From positions 30,721 through 94,720 of the forward strand of contig CAMAVJ010000004.1 in the NCBI GenBank assembly GCA_945861725.1: a DNA stretch of 64,000 nt, given 5' to 3'. The DNA comes from Rickettsia typhi. GTDB taxonomy: Bacteria > Pseudomonadota > Alphaproteobacteria > Rickettsiales > Deianiraeaceae. The notes beneath the pieces were generated by a model that ran no database searches, was not told the DNA's origin, and saw only the letters and a list, made by a program, of their open reading frames with translations. The position numbers and the translations under genes are program-made. Positions within the stretch are counted from its first letter, which is position 1, and each line of letters starts with the position of its first letter. Below are positions 821 through 57,070 of this stretch, one piece after another.

Positions 821-1717
821 CTAAACACATGCTATTATTTGTGATTTCTCAAGGAGATGAGATGGATCTTTATAATACAGTGCATCGGTAATTAGCCCGC
901 TTTGTTTTACAAACATTTCAAATTCTTTTTGCATTGAGTGAACTAATCCTTCAATTGTAAAATTATGCAGAAATATACTGCCAGAGAGTATTGCCATTAT
1001 ATTTAAAGTATTTGTGTGTAATAACTTGGAATATTTGTTGATATCACACGATTCATGGTGGTGTTCAATTGCATGAAAAAGCTGTTCGTTTTCTTCCTGT
1101 AGATTGATTTTATATCTTGCTTTAAATGCGGCAATATCAAAATTGGTGATTAACCTATTTGGGGATATATCCGTTGTTCCAACTGTTTTTACTGACTTTT
1201 GAGTTTCACAATCAAATTGTTTAATTTCCTCAATTTTATTACCGGAAAACTCAATTCTAATTGCTTCGTTCGTCGTGGCAAAATCCAAAATATACCCCCT
1301 CATACTAAACTCGGCCGGATTGTAAACGGTTGACGTTGAGTTATAACCCATTTCAACAAGTTTTTTTGCAATTTCTACAATAGAAATACTTTGTCCCTTC
1401 GTAAGGGTCATTCTTGTGAAGGAATCTGGCTCTGGCAATGGAAAGAATAACAAAGATGAGTGAATTAGTGTAACTTTTGCTTGGCTTTCAAATGATTTAA
1501 TATAATTTTTCAAAAATGTAAAGTCGTTCAAACCTTCGTGATTTGTAAAAAATGAAAACCTCGGTGCAAGAATTGTGACATCGACACCAAGAAATTCCAA
1601 GTTATGTGTAAGTTCTTCTAAAATATTGTGACTTTGTGAAATGAAGATGACTTTATTTTTCTGGGAATATTCCTGTAAAATAAACGGCAAAGCTTCCTGA
1701 TGAATAAATTCTTGCAT
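821..1717 (-). CDS. Stand-alone Mfd (transcription-repair coupling factor) N-terminal UvrB-homology module; no RNAP-binding or translocase part; possibly a gene remnant
   Basis: 298 aa. AEFSMRGYILDFATTNEAIRIEFSGNKIEEIKQFDCETQKSV matches the Mfd signature GEYxxRGxxxDxFP..PxRxxFFxDEIxxIRxFDxxxQRS. The flanking blocks (KVIFISQSHNILEEL.., TLTKGQSISIVEIAKKLVEMGY) are colinear with E. coli Mfd residues about 25-330. The start overlaps the ileS stop (TAATG). Confidence 0.6.
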   Translation of the reverse strand: MQEFIHQEALPFILQEYSQKNKVIFISQSHNILEELTHNLEFLGVDVTILAPRFSFFTNHEGLNDFTFLKNYIKSFESQAKVTLIHSSLLFFPLPEPDSFTRMTLTKGQSISIVEIAKKLVEMGYNSTSTVYNPAEFSMRGYILDFATTNEAIRIEFSGNKIEEIKQFDCETQKSVKTVGTTDISPNRLITNFDIAAFKARYKINLQEENEQLFHAIEHHHESCDINKYSKLLHTNTLNIMAILSGSIFLHNFTIEGLVHSMQKEFEMFVKQSGLITDALYYKDPSHLLEKSQIIACV

Positions 1718-4700
1718 TAAATTAACCTTTGAAAAATTGCCTCCGATGTAAACGGCAAAATTGGTGCAATTGCGGTTGTAAAATCCAGAATTACAGTGTA
1801 AAGAGTATTATATGCTGAATCCTTATCTTCATCTTTTTTAGCTTTCCAAAAGCGTTCTTTATTTCGACGAATATACCAATTATTCAGTACATCAATAAAA
1901 TTTTCAATCAATTTACACGCGGTTTGAGTATTATACGAATCCATTTCGTGTTTAAAATCCCGCAGAAATTCGTGCAGCTTTGAAAGAATATAAATATCCA
2001 TCGTGTTGCTGGAATTGTAGCTTTTTATACCAATGATTTCATCGGCATTGGCATACATTGCAAAGAAATTATATGAATTCCAAATTGGCTTAATGATTAA
2101 ACGCAAAATTTCAGCAATTCCTTGTGAGGTTTTTGGAATGAATAAATCTCCACCGTTAACAACGGGCGAAGAAACGACGAAATAACGCATAGCGTCCGAA
2201 CCTATTGTATCAAAAACCTCCAAAGGATCTGGGTAATTTCGCAAGCGTTTTGAAAGCTTTTGCCCGTTTTCGTCTAAAATTACACCGTGGCAAATGCAGT
2301 TTTTGAACGGTTCGCGACCAAAAAGTGCCGTCCCAAGCACCATTAATGTATAAAACCAACCACGAGTCTGTGCCGTGTATTCGACAATGAAATCGGCAGG
2401 GAAGTTTGATGGGCAAGGAAGTTTTGTTTCCGCCGTTGCAACAAAATTTTCAGGGTTTTTCTTAAAGCGTTCGTCCGCAAATGGGAAATGAACGGAAGCA
2501 AATGGCATTGAGCCCGATTCAAACCAACAGTCTAGGACATCTTCGACTCTTTTGATTCGGCAGTTAATTTGAATGCTGTCATCACGCAAATTATATCTTT
2601 TAAACTCATTTTGAAATGATGAGAGGGTTGTGTCGCTATTTGGTTTTTGTGATACATATTGTGATATAGCTTTCTCTATTATATCAAGAATTTCATCATA
2701 ATTGTTTTCGCTGCAAAACAATGAATTGCCGTATTCTTCATAAATATGCACTATCCCTTTCTTTTTTAGCTCTACTACAACTTGCGACATTACAAAGTAC
2801 GGAAGCGCGACTGGTATGATTTTCTCCACGCACTCCAAATTGTCAATAAACGGGCGGTGTAAATCTTTGACTTCCACCCCAAAGAATTTTTCCATTTCCG
2901 CAATTGAACCAAATACATATTTTGCGCCACTGATTGACTTCCAAACCGGAACAGGGCAACCCCAGAAACGATTGCGAGAAATTGACCAATCTCGTGCATT
3001 TTCCAGCCATTTTCCAAAAATTCCGTCCTTAACATGGTTTGGTACCCAGTTGATGTTTTTGTTATTTTCAACCATTTCGTCTTTGAAGTCGGTGACTCTA
3101 ACATACCACGAAGGCATTGCTTTGTAAATTAGCGGAGTATCCGTTCGCCAGCAGTGTGGATAATTATGAATGTATTGCTCGGTTTTAAACCAAGAGCCCT
3201 GCTTTTTTAGGAATTTAATAATGTCGTCGTTGCAATCAAAAACTTGACGCCCAACTAGCGAAAGAATTCCAGTATCCAGCGTAAAATTTACTCTTTCATT
3301 ACCAGATCTCTCGTAAATTTTCTTTCCTTTATTCGCAAATCCAAGTTTTTCAAGCACTTTATGAGATTGAAGATTGTCTTCGCCAGCGTATGCTGAAATT
3401 TCATTTATACCCGATACTTCGATAAGTTTTTTCCCGATTTCAACTGCGTATCCGCGTCCCCAAAATTCTTTGTGAAGAGTAAACCCAATCTGCTTTTCTT
3501 CGGAATTTAGAGTGATGTTATCAATTCCTGCAAGTCCAATAAATGAATTGGTGGATTGTTCGAATACCATTAACCGTGAGTGATCAAATTTTGCTTTTAG
3601 AGCAACATAAAGTGCAATTTCTGCGTGAATTTCTTGGTCGCTTAAAATTTGTTTGCCGTAAAACTTACGAACTTCGGAATCTTGGTAAAGCTTTTGTATT
3701 AATGGAAGATCTTCATTTGTTATTTCCTTTGTATAAAGACGATCTGTCTGAATATTGAAATTTTTTTGTGCGATTTTCTGCGAATTTTGGTCAATATCCC
3801 AAATTTCTGCGGTATACTTTCCCTTCTCATCAACTGGACAAACAGTTTGAACGCCAATTTTCTTACAAAGTTCATGGTCGTCCTCACCAAAACCAGGGGC
3901 AATGTGCACAATTCCAGTTCCATCTTCAGTGGTAACGAAGTCTCCGTGAACAACTTTAAACGCATTTGTGTGATTGGAGAAATAAGGGAAAAGTGGTTGA
4001 TATGATGCACCAATTAGTTCAGAGCCTTTGAACTCTCCCATAATTTCCGCTTCCTTAAAATTCTTTGCAATTAAATTTTTTGCTATAATAATTTTTTCAT
4101 CATTATGTATAACAACACAATATTCGACCGCAGAATTTATGGCAATCATAAGGTTTGCGGGAAGCGTCCACGGCGTTGTCGTCCATACAAGAAGTTTTGC
4201 ACCTGCATATTTGCCGGATGTTACTGCAAACTTTACCGTTACGGTTTTGGATGTCTTTTCGCGATAGGAATTATCCATTCTTGTTTCAAAGTTTGAAAGT
4301 GGAGTCTCCGCCTTCCAAGAATATGGCATAACTCGGTAATCTTCGTAAATTAAACCCTTGTTGTGTAGTTGTTTAAACGCCCAAATCACAGATTCCATAT
4401 ACGATAAATCCATCGTTTTGTAATCATTTTCAAAGTTGACCCATCTTCCCGCTTTTTGAATATAATGTTCCCAATCGGCGGCGTATTTCATCACAGATGT
4501 TCGACATTGCTCATTGAAATGTTCAATTCCGTACTTGGTGATATCAACCCTTCCTTGAATTCCAAGTTGTTTTTCAACTTCCATTTCGGCAGGCAGACCG
4601 TGGCAATCCCAGCCGAAACGGCGTTCTGTTTTTTTGCCATTCATTGTTTGATACCGTGCATAGATATCCTTGATGAACGATGTTAAAAGATGACCATAGT

Positions 4701-4866
4701 GCGGCAAACCGTTTGCGAAGGGAGGACCATCGTAGAATATAAATTCGCCATCGTTTGTTTCTTCAACTGATCGTTCAAAAATTTTATTGTCTTCCCAAAA
4801 TTTGGCGATTTTCTTTTCAATTTCCGGAAATGTTTCGTTTTCTAGTGGTTGGTATTGTTTTTTCAT
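1717..4866 (-). CDS. ileS: Isoleucyl-tRNA synthetase, type 2 (eukaryote-like), with an inserted GNAT domain, a second insertion and no C-terminal domain
   Basis: 1049 aa. It has the HIGH motif PHYGH, editing-domain motifs TTTPWTLPAN and GIVHIAPGFGEDD, HNYPHCWRTDTPLIYKA, DVLDCWFESGSMPFA, and the KMSKS motif KLSKRLRNYPDP (type-2/eukaryotic form). See findings for the insertions and the truncation. Confidence 0.93.
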   Translation of the reverse strand: MKKQYQPLENETFPEIEKKIAKFWEDNKIFERSVEETNDGEFIFYDGPPFANGLPHYGHLLTSFIKDIYARYQTMNGKKTERRFGWDCHGLPAEMEVEKQLGIQGRVDITKYGIEHFNEQCRTSVMKYAADWEHYIQKAGRWVNFENDYKTMDLSYMESVIWAFKQLHNKGLIYEDYRVMPYSWKAETPLSNFETRMDNSYREKTSKTVTVKFAVTSGKYAGAKLLVWTTTPWTLPANLMIAINSAVEYCVVIHNDEKIIIAKNLIAKNFKEAEIMGEFKGSELIGASYQPLFPYFSNHTNAFKVVHGDFVTTEDGTGIVHIAPGFGEDDHELCKKIGVQTVCPVDEKGKYTAEIWDIDQNSQKIAQKNFNIQTDRLYTKEITNEDLPLIQKLYQDSEVRKFYGKQILSDQEIHAEIALYVALKAKFDHSRLMVFEQSTNSFIGLAGIDNITLNSEEKQIGFTLHKEFWGRGYAVEIGKKLIEVSGINEISAYAGEDNLQSHKVLEKLGFANKGKKIYERSGNERVNFTLDTGILSLVGRQVFDCNDDIIKFLKKQGSWFKTEQYIHNYPHCWRTDTPLIYKAMPSWYVRVTDFKDEMVENNKNINWVPNHVKDGIFGKWLENARDWSISRNRFWGCPVPVWKSISGAKYVFGSIAEMEKFFGVEVKDLHRPFIDNLECVEKIIPVALPYFVMSQVVVELKKKGIVHIYEEYGNSLFCSENNYDEILDIIEKAISQYVSQKPNSDTTLSSFQNEFKRYNLRDDSIQINCRIKRVEDVLDCWFESGSMPFASVHFPFADERFKKNPENFVATAETKLPCPSNFPADFIVEYTAQTRGWFYTLMVLGTALFGREPFKNCICHGVILDENGQKLSKRLRNYPDPLEVFDTIGSDAMRYFVVSSPVVNGGDLFIPKTSQGIAEILRLIIKPIWNSYNFFAMYANADEIIGIKSYNSSNTMDIYILSKLHEFLRDFKHEMDSYNTQTACKLIENFIDVLNNWYIRRNKERFWKAKKDEDKDSAYNTLYTVILDFTTAIAPILPFTSEAIFQRLI

Positions 4867-5369
4867 ATATTTTTCATTAAATATAAATTCATTTCATCAT
4901 CAACGGTTGTTGTTTCACCGTATTTTAAATTTTTTCCACAATATGCCACGCCATGCCCATCAAATTGATATCCAAGTTTGAGATACAACTTTAAGGCGTT
5001 GGAATAGTCTGCTGTTAAGCCGACGCCTAATCCAATTATTTTGGAATTTAATGTTTCTTTCGCATATTTTTCACACTCTTGAATCAATTGTGTTCCAATT
5101 CCGCAATTTTGATGCAATGGCAAAACATTCAAATCTGATATCTCTGGAATATTGTTTGTTGAAAAATATTCGTACTTGGATTTGTGTAAAAGTGTGCAAT
5201 ATCCCAAAGAAATATCACTTTCAAAGGCAACATAGCATTTTCTCAATCCAATTTCTTGCTCTTGAAGATATTTCTGAAATAATTCCACAGGTTTATTCCA
5301 GCCAATATTTCGAAAAGCATTGCTGACAACCTCGCGATCTTCAATTAACAAAGATTTCAATGTCAACAT
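4863..5369 (-). CDS. GNAT family N-acetyltransferase (free-standing)
   Basis: 168 aa. The acetyl-CoA motif A-like segment is NVLPLHQNCGIGTQLIQECEKYAKE, followed by ALKLYLKLGYQ. The stop overlaps the ileS start (ATGA) and the start overlaps the fabF stop (TAATG). Confidence 0.75.
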   Translation of the reverse strand: MLTLKSLLIEDREVVSNAFRNIGWNKPVELFQKYLQEQEIGLRKCYVAFESDISLGYCTLLHKSKYEYFSTNNIPEISDLNVLPLHQNCGIGTQLIQECEKYAKETLNSKIIGLGVGLTADYSNALKLYLKLGYQFDGHGVAYCGKNLKYGETTTVDDEMNLYLMKNI

Positions 5370-22072: not shown

Positions 22073-22157
22073 ATGATGGCGATAATTATGCTAACCAATG
22101 TTCCACTTCATGTGTTTAATATCAAAATTATTTCGCCAATTGGTTCAAATAACCATT

Positions 22158-25043
22158 ATGGCGATCCATCTTATGTGCTTTGCAAGTACCATTTGGCGTT
22201 CAATATGCTTTGCAGCGGAATTACAAAAAGAGCAGACACAGGAGCAACGTCCAAATTTGCCTCAAGTTTCATCACAAACTAAAGATTTACCACAAACGGA
22301 AGTCCCTCAAGTTGTTGATTCTTTGGCAACAAATTTTACAACACCAGAAACACCTACAACTTTAAATACCCTACATCAAGTTCCTGATATTGAAGAGGCT
22401 AAAATGGCGGCAACGCAAATGGTTGTTAGTAGTGAAACGCAGAAAAAACTTCCGTATATCTCAAAACCAACGGAACCTTCAAATTACGAACCATATTTAA
22501 CATCATTCAACCTTGGAAGTATTACCATTGCCGATGATTTTATCATATACGGAAGTACAATTCAGCGGGATAAATATTATATCCCACTTTCATTTTTCGC
22601 AAAATATACGCAAATTCCCCTTGAAGAAAAAGGAGATCTTCTTGTTGGGTGGTTTTTAAAGGAAAATAATAAAATTGAGATCAATACCAAAACTGGTGTT
22701 GTCAAAATTGGGAATGCAACCTACCAGTTTACAGCTCAAGATGCAGTAATTCTTTATACCGAACTCCTAGTTTCAATCGAAATGTTGGCTCAACTCTTTC
22801 CAATGGAAATGAAGTTTGACCTTTCTCAACAAGTTTTAAATGTTGAAACCAAAACACCATTCCCAATTGAACAAGCACTTGCAAGGCAAGAGGCTCTTGG
22901 AAATATTAATAAAGATAAAAACCCCGATGACGAAGAACTCAAAAAAGCCAAACTCGAAGTACAGGAATACCAACAATTTTCAATGCCAAATATTGATATG
23001 ACATACAGTAATGCAATTAATAGCCAGACTTTCAAAATGAATCAAAATCTTTCATTTACATCAACAAGTCACTTGCTAAAATCTATATTAAATGTTACAG
23101 GGAGTGTTGTTGGAAATTCAGATCAGTTCAATTTGAACTCAATGAAGGCTTCACTTCGAAGAAATGATTCCATTTCTCACCCATTTGAACACTACCTTCA
23201 CCCAAAGCAATACTGGGTTGGCGATATTGCCACAACGCCAGCAAATTTGATTTCAAGTGCAACAACGGGCATTGGGGCATCAGTTTCCAATATTCCAGCA
23301 GGTTGGAAAATTGACTTTAATAATTTGCAAATCACTGGTTATGCAATTCCAAATTGGTCAGTTGAAATTTATCTCAACAATAACCTTCTTAATTTTTCAA
23401 CAGTTGATTTAACGGGGTTTTACCTTTTTTCAGAAATTCCGCTCAGTGCTGGTCTTAACACGGTGAAGTTGGTGTTTTATGGTCCATTTGGGCAATCTCG
23501 CGAGGTGATTCAAAAAGTTAATCTTTCTTCGTCATTATTACAAAAAGGAAAAATTGGGTACGAGTTTAGTACAGTTAAAGAACGAACATCCATCATTCCA
23601 ACTGCAAGCTCAATACCAAAGGCGGATGATCAAACTTACGATACTCAACGATACTTCGGAAATATTCGCTACGGAATTGGTAATGAGACATCCCTTGCCA
23701 TTGGAATGACATCATATATGAAAAACTTTACTGGCATTGCGGCAAATCAAGCTGAACGCCAGAACTACCTTTCGTCATCAATAACAACGTCGCTTTTTGG
23801 GATAATAGTCAACACAGATTTTGCTTATCATCTGAATTCACATGAAGGTGCAGCAAAATTTAGTTTAAACGCGCCGGTTTTTAAGGAATCCAATTTGTTC
23901 GTAAGCTCGCAAATCTTTACGGAAAAGTTTATTAGCGAAACAAGACCTCAAGCAAATGAAGCTGCACAAAAATCATTAAATGAAATTCGTATAAAAAATG
24001 GAATAAAACTTTTTGGGAAATTTGTCGTAGGAACATATTCCCTCAAGGTAAACACGCTTAATTCTGGAAACGCAAATTATACACTCGATGCACAAAATTC
24101 AATCACATTCATTAAATCCCTCTCCCTTGCAAATAGCCTACAAACAAGTGTTAACCAAAATGGCAACCAAGTTGTAAAGTCCACAACAGGAAGTGCGAAC
24201 TTGACTTTTAAGTCGGAAAAAGGCTTTCTTTTACGTGGAACGGTAAATTATACTCCTCTTTTTGCACAAACCTTCTTCACAACATCGTCATTTAGTGCCA
24301 ACTATAATCGTGGTTTATTTGGCACAACCAGCACTTATAATATGAATCTGGTTACAAACCAAGGTACTTACATGATCGGCCTCAATGTTAATAGTAAATA
24401 TATTACGACAAGTTTTCAATTAGGCACGGATAAATCTATTAGTGCGAATATTAATATCAATTTTAACAAAAGCGTGATATTTGATGGTATTAAGCCAAAA
24501 ATAAGTCAATCTGGTGCTGCGAGTGGGGGAATTATTGCTGTTAGTGCATTTATGGATGCAAATAATAATGGTAAATGGGATTTTGACGAAGTACCAGCAA
24601 AAGATGTCGCAATCAAGACTTCGGGCAATTCAAAAAAAGAACTCACGAATGCAAAAGGTCAGCTACTTTTAACGGGACTTCCATCCGATTCCGCTTTCCT
24701 TTTTGATGCCGATACTGGAATGATGCCCGACATATCAGTTCAGCCTGCACAAAGTGTGAAAAGAAAAATCATTCTTAAAGCGGGAGCTCCTCACAAAATT
24801 CTTGTTCCAATTGTAAAAATTATTGATATTGAAGGAACGCTTGTTGTTCAAATGAACGATGAGAAAATTCCCGTCTCCAATGCAACGATTCAGTTAATCG
24901 ACAAAAGCAATAAAATCATTGATACTACAACGACAACACCAGACGGTTATTATATTTTTAGCAGAGTCGTTCAAGGAACTTACAAGGTTCGAGCTTCCAA
25001 AGAAACAATTGAAAAATATAAAAAGTATTTGCTCAATAAATGA
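22158..25043 (+). CDS. Outer-membrane usher-like protein with P/Q/T-rich linker and C-terminal Ig-like (SdrD-B-like / CarboxypepD_reg-like) domains
   Basis: The ORF is open from 22098. I prefer Met21 (MAIHLMCFASTIWRSICFAA/ELQ) as a signal peptide. Residues 411-490 (ITGYAIPNWSVEIYLNNNLL..GFYLFSEIPLSAGLNTVKLVFYGPFGQSREV..LLQKGKIGYEF) fit the fimbrial usher pattern G.a..a.V.v..Ng..i....v..G.F.i.dl....G.l.v.v...dG......v......ll..G...y. A long Y/S/T/N-rich stretch follows, which I read as likely beta-barrel. The C-terminus has DANNNGKWDFDE and TPDGYYIFSRVVQGTYKV. Confidence 0.6.
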   Translation: MAIHLMCFASTIWRSICFAAELQKEQTQEQRPNLPQVSSQTKDLPQTEVPQVVDSLATNFTTPETPTTLNTLHQVPDIEEAKMAATQMVVSSETQKKLPYISKPTEPSNYEPYLTSFNLGSITIADDFIIYGSTIQRDKYYIPLSFFAKYTQIPLEEKGDLLVGWFLKENNKIEINTKTGVVKIGNATYQFTAQDAVILYTELLVSIEMLAQLFPMEMKFDLSQQVLNVETKTPFPIEQALARQEALGNINKDKNPDDEELKKAKLEVQEYQQFSMPNIDMTYSNAINSQTFKMNQNLSFTSTSHLLKSILNVTGSVVGNSDQFNLNSMKASLRRNDSISHPFEHYLHPKQYWVGDIATTPANLISSATTGIGASVSNIPAGWKIDFNNLQITGYAIPNWSVEIYLNNNLLNFSTVDLTGFYLFSEIPLSAGLNTVKLVFYGPFGQSREVIQKVNLSSSLLQKGKIGYEFSTVKERTSIIPTASSIPKADDQTYDTQRYFGNIRYGIGNETSLAIGMTSYMKNFTGIAANQAERQNYLSSSITTSLFGIIVNTDFAYHLNSHEGAAKFSLNAPVFKESNLFVSSQIFTEKFISETRPQANEAAQKSLNEIRIKNGIKLFGKFVVGTYSLKVNTLNSGNANYTLDAQNSITFIKSLSLANSLQTSVNQNGNQVVKSTTGSANLTFKSEKGFLLRGTVNYTPLFAQTFFTTSSFSANYNRGLFGTTSTYNMNLVTNQGTYMIGLNVNSKYITTSFQLGTDKSISANININFNKSVIFDGIKPKISQSGAASGGIIAVSAFMDANNNGKWDFDEVPAKDVAIKTSGNSKKELTNAKGQLLLTGLPSDSAFLFDADTGMMPDISVQPAQSVKRKIILKAGAPHKILVPIVKIIDIEGTLVVQMNDEKIPVSNATIQLIDKSNKIIDTTTTTPDGYYIFSRVVQGTYKVRASKETIEKYKKYLLNK

Positions 25044-55066: not shown

Positions 55067-57070
55067 ATGTTGCGAAAAATTATTTTCCCTGCGATTATCA
55101 TGCTTGCAACATTTGGCAATGCTTATTCAGACTTTAGCCCAACTAATTCATTTATTGATCCCGCGTGTCTTGCAAGGCAGAATACTACCTCCACTGGGGC
55201 GACTACCATCACCAATAAACGACTTTCTGCTCCAACATTTTTCGAATTAAGAATCGAAATTCAGAAAAACCTTACAAACTTCCTTACAACAAGAATTATT
55301 TCTCACGATCTTTCATCATCTGGAGGTGGAAAGTCGTGTCCAAACCCTTTTACAAATTCCAATTGTAGCATTACGGGTTTTAACAACACCGATGGCACCG
55401 CCATTACAATCGATCAACTCTACCAATTCGTTGTTTATGGAACACTGTATAGATACATCGCCGCAGATGTTCTTGATGGTAACACACTTGAAACATTGCG
55501 GACTGAATTTTCAAAGGGTTATATCGACCCCCAATCCCCAGGATACGATGTCACATTCGCACAAAATGCAAGTCAAACATTTGATGCCAAACTTAAATCT
55601 ATTGTAGGAAGCCTTGGATTGACGGACGGGATAAACTCTTTGAATAATAAATCAACTGCGGATATTACTACTCTTGTCGACACAGCATCCACAAAGATCG
55701 CCGAATCGATGTCTTCTGATGCCTTGTTTTTACAGAAATTTGGATACTCCTCCCTTGTTGCGTTTCCAATAACTTCCCGTTTGATGGAGTGCCTCGATGG
55801 AACGTTTAGTAATCTTTTTATGAGAGATATCGCTGGTATCAAACAAACGCCTTTCAGAATCGCACAAGATTACTTCAAGCCCGTCGTAATTCTTGCGTTA
55901 ATACTGTACTTCATTGCTTATGGTTATAAAATAATGATGGCACACGGAATGGGTAAGCAATCCGAAATGTTTATGTTTGCCATTAAATTTGGTTTAGTTT
56001 TTTATTTTTCCATCGGTGAGGGGTGGAAAGAAATTGGATTTAACTTTCTAAAGTCAATTCCTGCAACCGTTTCGCAAATTATGTTTGAAGCTCTGCCAAG
56101 TTCTGAAGATGGCTGCTCTGTGTATACACCGCAGCTTTATCCTTCCGGTAAAGGTATTTTATCATTCTTTGATACTATCGATTGTAAATACGCAAATTAC
56201 ATCGGTTTACCTTCTGGTAAATCAATTCCAGCGATTTTTTCACTAATAACATTCCCGATGTTAATTCCAATTCCAATGGTGGGGTTAATTATCTCAATCC
56301 TTTCAATTGTATATCTTTCATTGGTAACTTATGGAATTTTAGCGGGAATAGAGATTTATATATCATCAATAGTATTTTTAACATTTTACCTATTTCTTTC
56401 GCCCATCATCGTTCCCATGGCTTTATTCGAAAAAACTAGTGGTATATTCACAACATTTCAAGGAAAAATTGTCGGGTGCGTCGTGCAAGGAGTAATGGCA
56501 ATTGTTCTTATTGTAACAACCATAGCATTGATGGATGGAATAATATATGGAAAAGACCCCGTGGGCAATCAACTATTTGTTCCACCAACTCAGTCATATG
56601 TTAATGGAATTCCTCAGCCAAAAATAATGAGTAAAGACTGTTACCCGAATAGCACAGTTGGCGTTGCCTCAAGTGGTGGTGCCACTCTTGGTAAACTAAG
56701 TGTAGTTCCTATGGCGTGTCATCTTGCAAAAATTGCGAATGAGGGCGTTACTTGGATTGGGTTTCCAATTCCTTATATTTTTACATTTTTTGAGTTACCG
56801 GCACCCGGAGTTGGTCTTGCTACTTTACTAATTCCCCTCATACTTCCCGCAATTATAACTGTTATAATGTTGTTTATAATAAATACTGTTATGAGTCAAA
56901 CAAAGGCTATGATCGATAAAATTAGTAATGCAGAAAATATGGGCTCCTTTGGTGCGGCAAAATATAGTGGTGCAGCTGCTTTGATTGAGGGAGGGAAAAA
57001 AGTTGCTGGCGAAGGAAAACAAGCTTATGATGATGTAATGAAGGCATTTAGCTCAGATAAACCGAAATAG
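55067..57070 (+). CDS. TrbL/VirB6-like type IV secretion inner-membrane protein (putative), solitary
   Basis: 667 aa. It has a signal peptide (..TFGNAYS), a soluble region of about 250 aa, at least 6 TM segments including FKPVVILALILYFIAYGYKIMMAHGMG, and a hydrophilic tail. The architecture matches long Rickettsiales-type VirB6 paralogues. This is a by-eye call only. Confidence 0.45.
   Translation: MLRKIIFPAIIMLATFGNAYSDFSPTNSFIDPACLARQNTTSTGATTITNKRLSAPTFFELRIEIQKNLTNFLTTRIISHDLSSSGGGKSCPNPFTNSNCSITGFNNTDGTAITIDQLYQFVVYGTLYRYIAADVLDGNTLETLRTEFSKGYIDPQSPGYDVTFAQNASQTFDAKLKSIVGSLGLTDGINSLNNKSTADITTLVDTASTKIAESMSSDALFLQKFGYSSLVAFPITSRLMECLDGTFSNLFMRDIAGIKQTPFRIAQDYFKPVVILALILYFIAYGYKIMMAHGMGKQSEMFMFAIKFGLVFYFSIGEGWKEIGFNFLKSIPATVSQIMFEALPSSEDGCSVYTPQLYPSGKGILSFFDTIDCKYANYIGLPSGKSIPAIFSLITFPMLIPIPMVGLIISILSIVYLSLVTYGILAGIEIYISSIVFLTFYLFLSPIIVPMALFEKTSGIFTTFQGKIVGCVVQGVMAIVLIVTTIALMDGIIYGKDPVGNQLFVPPTQSYVNGIPQPKIMSKDCYPNSTVGVASSGGATLGKLSVVPMACHLAKIANEGVTWIGFPIPYIFTFFELPAPGVGLATLLIPLILPAIITVIMLFIINTVMSQTKAMIDKISNAENMGSFGAAKYSGAAALIEGGKKVAGEGKQAYDDVMKAFSSDKPK

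Follow-up and report, generated by a model that had tools for sequence, protein, structure and literature searches.

Few enzymes have been studied as thoroughly as the aminoacyl-tRNA synthetases (aaRS), which are also validated targets of antibiotics, and the locus described here raises the question of why one of them carries a complete acetyltransferase domain in the middle of its sequence. The locus lies in a stretch of 64,000 nucleotides (contig CAMAVJ010000004.1, positions 30,721–94,720), referred to here as the window and used for all coordinates, and its host is a bacterium of the Rickettsiales close to Candidatus Deianiraeaceae. The gene, ileS (bases 1717–4866, reverse strand, as are all features within it), is a single uninterrupted open reading frame (ORF) for a short-form type-2 isoleucyl-tRNA synthetase (IleRS) of 1049 aa, and hosts two in-frame insertions, one of which, at bases 3262–3795, contains a GNAT acetyltransferase. 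The finding is less singular than it first seemed. It is a lineage-wide habit for IleRS and leucyl-tRNA synthetase (LeuRS), two related editing synthetases, to host between one and four GNATs, in some cases together with a NUDIX domain, in a number of permissive loops, and this pattern across the clade is of greater interest than the one case. The presence of a selected GNAT inside the editing domain of a housekeeping IleRS, with GNAT and NUDIX domains in the sister LeuRS, suggests an unexplored form of protection or regulation of tRNA charging.

The embedded GNAT and its host synthetase

The peptides on which a first-pass annotation of the window had based the insertion, YTAEIWDI (residues 351–358), RLYTKEITNEDLPLIQKLYQDSEVRKFY, FIGLAGIDNI...QIGFTLHKEFWGRGYAVEIGKKLIE, EDNLQSHKVLEKLGFANKG and LVGRQVFDCNDDIIKFLKKQG (from residue 537), were all found in the one ORF. 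When the protein was aligned with the yeast cytoplasmic IleRS (7d5c/9wqs) using phmmer, the alignment broke at residue 359 of the query and restarted at residue 538, both at yeast residue 367. As the alignment stops and restarts at one yeast residue, the insertion is clean, and the borders given originally (bases 3262–3795, residues 358–535) agree with it. This position, 28 residues past the last editing motif, is the C-terminal part of the CP1/editing domain, going by established IleRS boundaries.

The 178 aa insertion consists of a variable linker followed by a complete GNAT. The linker (residues 358–374, bases 3745–3795) is poorly conserved, differs in both length and sequence between orthologues, and is predicted to be disordered, with a predicted local distance difference test score (pLDDT) of 41 over the first ten residues. 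The folded core occupies residues 375–535 (bases 3262–3744). A Pfam search placed PF13302 (Acetyltransf_3, the RimJ/RimL type) at residues 376–510, covering model positions 1–137 of 138, with an E-value of 3e-21 when the full-length protein was searched and 6.6e-22 when only the 178 aa piece was used, and with scores of 76.9–79.1 bits against a cut-off of 25.4. The earlier assignment of a complete RimJ/RimL-like GNAT to residues 358–535 is therefore upheld by the profile match. Among the NCBIfam models, no rimJ, rimL or rimI equivalog was matched by the insert; the only matches at E ≤ 0.01 were to NF040702 (26 bits) and BlmB (18 bits).

Structure prediction with AlphaFold2 (AF2) pointed in the same direction. 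The insert alone was modelled with a pLDDT of 91.5 and with the canonical GNAT topology (beta-alpha-alpha-beta4-alpha-beta-alpha-beta2), and the domain kept a pLDDT above 90 inside a model of the full-length protein (overall pLDDT 85.9, predicted TM score 0.78). Foldseek matched the GNAT to many GNAT structures with a probability of 1.0, the top solved neighbours being PA3944, Atu 2fsr, BlmB, the RimJ-like 3igr and 2fck, and RimL 1s7l, with TM scores of 0.7–0.8 and 15–23% identity. In an alignment of 18 embedded GNATs, the acetyl-CoA pyrophosphate-binding motif, which reads FWGRGYA here (residues 468–474, bases 3445–3465), was conserved as FWG[KR]GYA.E in all 18, with the W and the second G invariant or nearly so. 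The C-terminal GNAT motif EDNLQSHKVLEKLGF (residues 496–510, bases 3337–3381) was likewise conserved in all 18 as DN..S..VLEK.GF, in which the N and K are invariant and the S nearly so. Autonomous folding and the binding of acetyl-CoA are thus supported by the model and the conserved motifs, and the embedded GNAT is, as predicted, an autonomous domain of the RimJ/RimL Pfam type (PF13302) with an apparently intact catalytic apparatus, placed in a surface loop of the editing domain.

The synthetase around it appears complete in the parts that it retains. In the Pfam scan of the 1049 aa protein, tRNA-synt_1 (E 2e-127) and Anticodon_1 flank the GNAT, and the NCBIfam ileS model TIGR00392 scored 822 bits against a cut-off of 621. 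Membership of the mupirocin-resistance types MupA and MupB was rejected, with 587 and 597 bits where at least 1900 are required. The editing and catalytic motifs, which the first-pass annotation had reported as intact on both sides of an in-frame insertion in the CP1/editing region, are indeed all present. Alignments with yeast IleRS and with the orthologues located the HIGH signature of the synthetic site as HYGH (residues 56–59, bases 4690–4701), the threonine-rich editing-site motif WTTTPWT in invariant columns (residues 228–234, bases 4165–4185), a further editing-site motif GTGIVHIAPGFGEDD ending 28 residues upstream of the GNAT insertion (residues 316–330, bases 3877–3921), and the KMSKS signature as KLSKR (residues 870–874, bases 2245–2259). 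Foldseek of the full-length model gave a TMt of 0.82–0.84 for the IleRS core against 1ile and 6ldk, so the core fold is retained, and the closest solved relatives are eukaryotic and type-2 IleRS. The protein stops after ARD1, covering positions 1–88 of 148 of the Anticodon_1 model, and lacks ARD2/ARD3 (PF19302). As the C-terminus falls at the identical point in every orthologue, the missing domains are a feature of the clade and not a truncation. Relatives of approximately 825 aa without inserts exist, and short type-2 IleRS (approximately 800–830 aa) are common in other phyla.

An intein or other splicing element was considered and rejected. Pfam gave no Hint or intein match, and the junctions (...IWDI|DQNS... 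and ...TGILS|LVGR...) include no splice residues; the insert must therefore remain in the mature protein. No flanking direct or inverted repeats were found at the GNAT borders, hence no scar of a mobile element, and neither the GNAT nor the other ileS insertion recurs elsewhere in the window. Rfam and tRNA scans of the window also revealed nothing relevant.

Inheritance and distribution of GNAT insertions

The same architecture is common to 10 orthologues (P0002–P0011; 70–82% identity), which were drawn from assemblies of JGI, ENA, Logan and NCBI, and of which one carries the annotation Candidatus Deianiraeaceae (a Rickettsiales family). Their genes are arranged in the order TPP-enzyme, hypothetical, fabF, in some cases a separate GNAT gene, and ileS, and the ileS of the window is a syntenic, housekeeping-type copy. 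Between orthologues the GNAT is 59–74% identical, compared with 73–92% for the IleRS core. The ratio of non-synonymous to synonymous substitutions (dN/dS), calculated by the Nei–Gojobori method with dS partly saturated, was 0.08–0.11 for the GNAT, and 0.05–0.10 for segments of the IleRS core, reaching 0.14 in segment 536–677. For the 17-residue linker it was approximately 0.66 (P0002 versus P0005). The earlier proposal that the domain is maintained and not decaying is borne out by the low GNAT values and by the retention of the acetyl-CoA motif in all embedded copies. The insertion is old, vertically inherited and under purifying selection.

Uniqueness did not survive. Comparable insertions are normal in this IleRS clade, with PF13302 carried by 29 of the 120 best IleRS matches in one to four GNATs each and at several sites, and the same is true of LeuRS. 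Insertion sites were defined using a MAFFT alignment, a hidden Markov model of the inserts and all-against-all BLAST, and were numbered (s) on a Rickettsia IleRS. GNATs of at least three subfamilies were found at at least four discrete loops, s43, s281–291, s371 and s438. At s371, the site used in the window protein, a related GNAT is found throughout the Deianiraeaceae-like clade and its sisters. A second GNAT subfamily is present at s438 in many sequences, including a metagenome-assembled genome labelled Flavobacteriaceae. In P0006 the GNATs at s43 and s438 share 60% identity, indicating an intragenic duplication. Loop s281–291 contains either a PF13302 GNAT (P0017) or an unrelated GNAT of the Acetyltransf_1/7/10 type (P0004, P0013, P0026, P0118), while P0012 has four GNATs that form two tandem pairs. 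A quick neighbour-joining tree of the IleRS cores showed the s371 GNAT as an ancestral feature of the clade to which the window protein belongs, and the s438 GNAT as patchy.

GNATs are still being gained, as indicated by a very recent insert in P0004 (L090, 6001–9597). The core of this protein is 92% identical to that of the window protein, and it contains an extra, clean, in-frame GNAT of 474 nt at s291 that is missing in its closest relatives. The end of the insert (..DIENFK|EFDG) loosely resembles the target sequence (..AEILE|EFDG). The G+C content at third codon positions (GC3) was 0.24–0.26 for the inserts, compared with 0.36 for the host gene, and was 0.24 for the P0004 insert. A metagenome scan for the donor of this insert gave only one match, which was 36% identical. 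A scan of the GTDB species representatives with the whole window protein missed the lineage, yielding distant IleRS alone, all of them free of a GNAT.

The same loops can receive a different enzyme. In other Rickettsiales, a DUF559/Vsr-like endonuclease (REase MTES_1575) was found in frame at s263, s371 or s790 of IleRS (P0014, P0021, P0039, P0077, P0087, P0097, P0117) and also in one LeuRS (P0288). These copies are 40–66% identical and sporadic within the clade of long-form Rickettsiales IleRS, and they look like a homing-type element that is retained in the mature protein. In addition, the IleRS of many Rickettsia endosymbionts (P0032, P0036, P0063, P0072, P0078, P0082 and P0091, amongst others) had lineage-specific inserts of 30–68 aa at approximately positions 220 and 790, which may be in-frame insertions of the palindromic-element type.

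For LeuRS, PF13302 was detected in 26 of the 120 best matches, at five sites (s232, s299, s352, s388 and s538, numbered on Wolbachia). Site s352 is within approximately 12 aligned residues of IleRS s371, in the homologous segment of the editing domain, and the majority of the GNAT-hosting loops are in this domain. One LeuRS of 1115 aa (P0272; L092, 10001–13348), very probably from the same genome as the window IleRS, to judge from a longest contig of identical length (653,514 bp), has a GNAT at the start of the editing domain (residues 270–372) and a NUDIX domain (residues 707–825) with a nearly intact Nudix box, located where its relatives, with up to four GNATs, carry a GNAT.

A word-indexed protein search with the GNAT alone gave two matches only. 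An exhaustive profile search of 1.84 billion representative proteins using the embedded GNATs yielded 151 proteins at E ≤ 1e-30. These included a bacterial LeuRS with three GNATs (P0123) and a GMP synthase whose two domains are separated by at least four GNATs (P0127; L007, 8001–12962), and whose gene context looked Helicobacter-like. Further hosts (P0244, P0126, P0195, P0173) were an LpxK with an inserted GNAT, a protein made up of nine GNATs, and proteins in which the GNAT is fused to an ABC ATPase or to an APH kinase. Free tandem-GNAT proteins of approximately 345 aa, which match the TlmB/BlmB models, were numerous.

The second insertion in the window IleRS is approximately 92 aa long (residues 678–769, bases 2560–2835) and lies between HRPFIDNL and RVEDVLDCWFESG, at sites s514–526 or yeast residues 510–518. 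It is not a GNAT, and no Pfam family was matched above threshold. AF2 predicted a small alpha/beta unit (pLDDT 63–87). In the orthologues it is 13–29% identical or absent, so this segment evolves freely. Other relatives have unrelated inserts of 76–86 aa close by (s479–487).

The neighbours of ileS are fabF, a gene for a 168 aa GNAT and an Mfd N-terminal fragment, and no antitoxin gene is among them. The separate GNAT (bases 4863–5369, reverse strand) is of the Acetyltransf_1/7/10 type and ends with a stop codon that shares 4 nt with the start of ileS. Conservation in this upstream position is limited to the closest relatives (L003, L004, L090), and the gene is replaced or absent in L001 and L005. 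A functional association with ileS is possible. That it is a free-standing twin of the embedded GNAT was considered and rejected, as BLAST detected no significant similarity to any inserted segment and the gene is absent in the more distant orthologues. Directly downstream of ileS, a 298 aa stand-alone gene (bases 821–1717, reverse strand) encodes only the N-terminal/UvrB-interaction module of Mfd. The equivalent gene is downstream of ileS in close relatives (L003, 7602–8498; L004, 9081–9980; L090, 9597–10496). The genome of P0011, which is more distant (L005, 13172–14925), does not have it in this position and elsewhere encodes a 784 aa Mfd without that module, and Mfd may be split into two genes in this lineage. 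Further away in the window, a TrbL/VirB6-like protein (bases 55067–57070, forward strand) fits a type IV secretion system of the Rickettsiales type, and a 981 aa protein (bases 22098–25043, forward strand) has a C-terminal SdrD_B/CarboxypepD_reg domain as its sole domain.

Possible roles of the embedded domain

The explanation that we favour, though tentatively, is that the embedded GNAT is an acetyl-CoA-dependent N-acetyltransferase tethered to its target, where it would inactivate amine-bearing ligands of IleRS. The domain would bind acetyl-CoA and transfer the acetyl group to a free amine on a small synthetase ligand, candidates being non-hydrolysable mimics of the aminoacyl-adenylate and toxic analogues of isoleucine or leucine. 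Once acetylated, the ligand would be unable to occupy the synthetic site. The insertion would then represent a resistance or detoxification module tied to its own drug target and working like the free-standing MccE, RimL and TfxH. A coupling to IleRS and LeuRS is suggested by the repeated recruitment of several GNAT subfamilies, and their duplication, specifically in these two related synthetases. The recent gain in P0004 and the combination of GNAT and NUDIX in the LeuRS P0272 also speak for it. Detoxification is favoured because the catalytic apparatus is under selection, and because the nearest structural neighbours include the antibiotic-modifying PA3944 and BlmB and relatives occur as fusions with APH and with an ABC ATPase. 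To our knowledge, the inactivation of an inhibitor by acetylation of its free amine is the only documented logic that connects a GNAT with an aaRS. If the GNAT does inactivate adenylate mimics or amino-acid analogues, a detoxifying enzyme built into its own drug target would be a new principle of resistance, with a bearing on the development of aaRS inhibitors.

Several observations weigh against this explanation. MccE was outside the top 50 Foldseek matches and RimL ranked only 22nd, and the insert matched no NCBIfam equivalog. Detoxification does not require a tethered enzyme. GMP synthase and LpxK likewise contain insertions of related GNATs, which weakens a logic specific to aaRS; GMP synthase (GuaA) is, for its part, also a target of amine-bearing glutamine analogues. 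Finally, no biosynthetic or transporter genes for an inhibitor were found near ileS in the window.

A broader form of the same idea, which we regard as doubtful, is that the embedded GNATs, together with the NUDIX domain in LeuRS, make up an in-cis layer of chemical defence or quality control in editing-class synthetases. From their place on the editing domain, the GNATs would acetylate, directly at the enzyme, mischarged aminoacyl-tRNA, toxins that mimic the adenylate or non-protein amino acids, and the NUDIX module might hydrolyse such ligands. This could amount to a third mechanism beside hydrolytic editing and target mutation, repeatedly gained and duplicated under selection in protist-associated Rickettsiales.

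The domain could instead acetylate protein, either the N-terminus of a ribosomal or translation protein, as RimJ, RimL and RimI do, or lysines of IleRS or a partner, and so link aminoacylation to the acetyl-CoA status. Acetyltransf_3, the best-matching Pfam family, is of the RimJ/RimL type, the RimJ-like 3igr and 2fck and RimL 1s7l are among the Foldseek neighbours, and the intact acetyl-CoA motif fits this equally well. However, the insert belongs to none of the rimJ, rimL or rimI equivalogs, no conserved lysine target was identified, and it is not obvious why an acetylase of ribosomal proteins would be re-inserted up to four times, in different loops, specifically in IleRS and LeuRS. On balance we consider protein acetylation unlikely.

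A similarly low probability attaches to the view that the GNAT segments are passengers, which, like DUF559, spread in frame into tolerant loops of essential, highly expressed genes and hitch-hike on ileS expression, with a job unrelated to IleRS or none at all. The patchy presence across the IleRS tree, the recent clean gain of 474 nt in P0004, the endonuclease in the same loops of other Rickettsiales, the related GNATs in GMP synthase, LpxK and the nine-GNAT protein, the lower GC3 of the inserts and the freely evolving second insertion are all consistent with such accretion. It is harder to reconcile with purifying selection that is as strong on the GNAT, catalytic motifs included, as on the IleRS core, with vertical retention across a family-level clade, or with the strong enrichment of IleRS and LeuRS among the hosts. 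Moreover, a GNAT has no known means of propagating itself, and there are neither flanking repeats nor a second copy in the 64 kb window. Whatever drives the gains, the lineage provides a natural series that could reveal how whole domains enter essential proteins in frame; it ranges from no GNAT to four, covers at least nine defined loops of the two synthetases, and includes a very recent gain as well as an endonuclease that uses these loops too.

Acetylation of aminoacyl-tRNA is less probable again. Here the substrate would be Ile-tRNA(Ile) or, more sensibly, a mischarged species, and the product would pass to peptidyl-tRNA hydrolase as an extra step of quality control. The CP1 editing domain, where the 3′ end of the tRNA is received, contains most of the sites in its loops (IleRS s281–291 and s371; LeuRS s232, s299, s352 and s388), and the near coincidence of IleRS s371 with LeuRS s352 in a homologous region adds to this. 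The GNAT toxin ItaT is reported to acetylate Ile-tRNA(Ile) (PMC7367177, PMC6125619). However, translation would be poisoned if the cognate product were acetylated, the motifs for hydrolytic editing are intact and leave nothing to compensate for, and the toxins that acetylate tRNA stand alone with antitoxin partners, of which there is none here. IleRS s43 and s438 and LeuRS s538 are outside the editing domain, and CP1 may be merely a permissive peripheral domain. Acetylation of Ile-tRNA(Ile) in the manner of ItaT, raised in the first-pass annotation, thus gained no support beyond the editing-domain position; the domain is of the Acetyltransf_3 type, and its nearest structural neighbours (PA3944, BlmB, RimJ, RimL) are N-acetyltransferases of small molecules and peptides.

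An assembly, frameshift or annotation artefact or a decaying pseudogene is effectively refuted, for although the usual C-terminal domains are missing and the next gene is only an Mfd fragment, the 1049 aa ORF is intact, independent assemblies of P0002–P0011 agree on the architecture, dN/dS is far below 1 and short-form IleRS2 of approximately 800–830 aa are widespread.

Comparison with known systems

Inteins, homing-endonuclease insertions and the palindromic elements of Rickettsia are in-frame selfish insertions in essential genes. The embedded GNATs share with them the surface-loop position, the essential hosts and the patchy distribution, and the DUF559 nuclease occupies the same IleRS loops. 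In contrast to these elements, the window GNAT has no Hint domain or splice residues, is an enzyme with no known function in mobility and is under strong purifying selection.

The best structural neighbours of the domain are PA3944, BlmB/TlmB and the bifunctional AAC-APH, and a relative is fused to an APH kinase. However, the substrates of these enzymes (polymyxin, bleomycin and aminoglycosides) have no link to IleRS, and the identity is only 15–23%. ItaT, TacT and AtaT are GNATs that act on the alpha-amine of aminoacyl-tRNA, but they are small, stand-alone proteins that cause growth arrest and are encoded with a cognate antitoxin gene, whereas the window GNAT is embedded in a 1049 aa protein, belongs to another GNAT subfamily and has no antitoxin partner.

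MccE and RimL confer resistance to microcin C by acetylating aminoacyl-adenylate analogues at the alpha-amine, over a broad range and with little specificity for the side chain (PMC3817062). The C-terminal domain of MccE and E. coli RimL are also GNATs of the Rim/Acetyltransf_3 type, and their chemistry would fit a GNAT tied to an aaRS. These enzymes are free-standing or fused to enzymes of the microcin C pathway, whereas the window GNAT sits inside the synthetase, and its match to RimL 1s7l (TM 0.77, 15% identity) is a generic similarity of fold. In the tiarin/trifolitoxin clusters, the GNAT TfxH acetylates a warhead that targets the arginyl-tRNA synthetase as a form of immunity, and GNAT and aaRS genes co-occur in clusters of this type (bioRxiv 10.64898/2025.12.02.691738). 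There, the linkage is one of gene neighbourhood in biosynthetic clusters; in the window a domain has been inserted into a housekeeping gene, near which no such cluster lies.

The nearest precedent is the NCBIfam family NF040702 (ileS_w_GNAT; 'isoleucine--tRNA ligase, N-acetyltransferase domain-containing'), likewise an IleRS with a GNAT in the region of the editing domain. Its existence, and that of JGI entries named 'isoleucyl-tRNA synthetase/GNAT superfamily N-acetyltransferase', overturns the earlier statement that no aaRS with an embedded GNAT was known. We found no functional description of the family, and no description of an IleRS or other aaRS bearing a GNAT in the literature, including a recent preprint on IleRS evolution (10.64898/2026.02.03.703510). 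The architecture is visible in databases (NCBIfam, JGI names) but apparently unstudied. The window protein does not belong to NF040702, scoring 291.8 bits against a cut-off of 1999, and none of eight other GNAT-bearing IleRS tested reached the cut-off. The window insert aligns weakly to the GNAT portion of the model (positions 278–433). Residues 19–271 of the window protein align to positions 25–288 of the model, and the GNAT of the model follows there, at the loop equivalent to s281–291 (window residues approximately 271–292, model positions approximately 278–470), whereas that of the window protein starts at residue 358, at s371. The window IleRS is distinct from NF040702 in both lineage and insertion site, and is part of a broader, previously undescribed pattern of insertions in IleRS and LeuRS.

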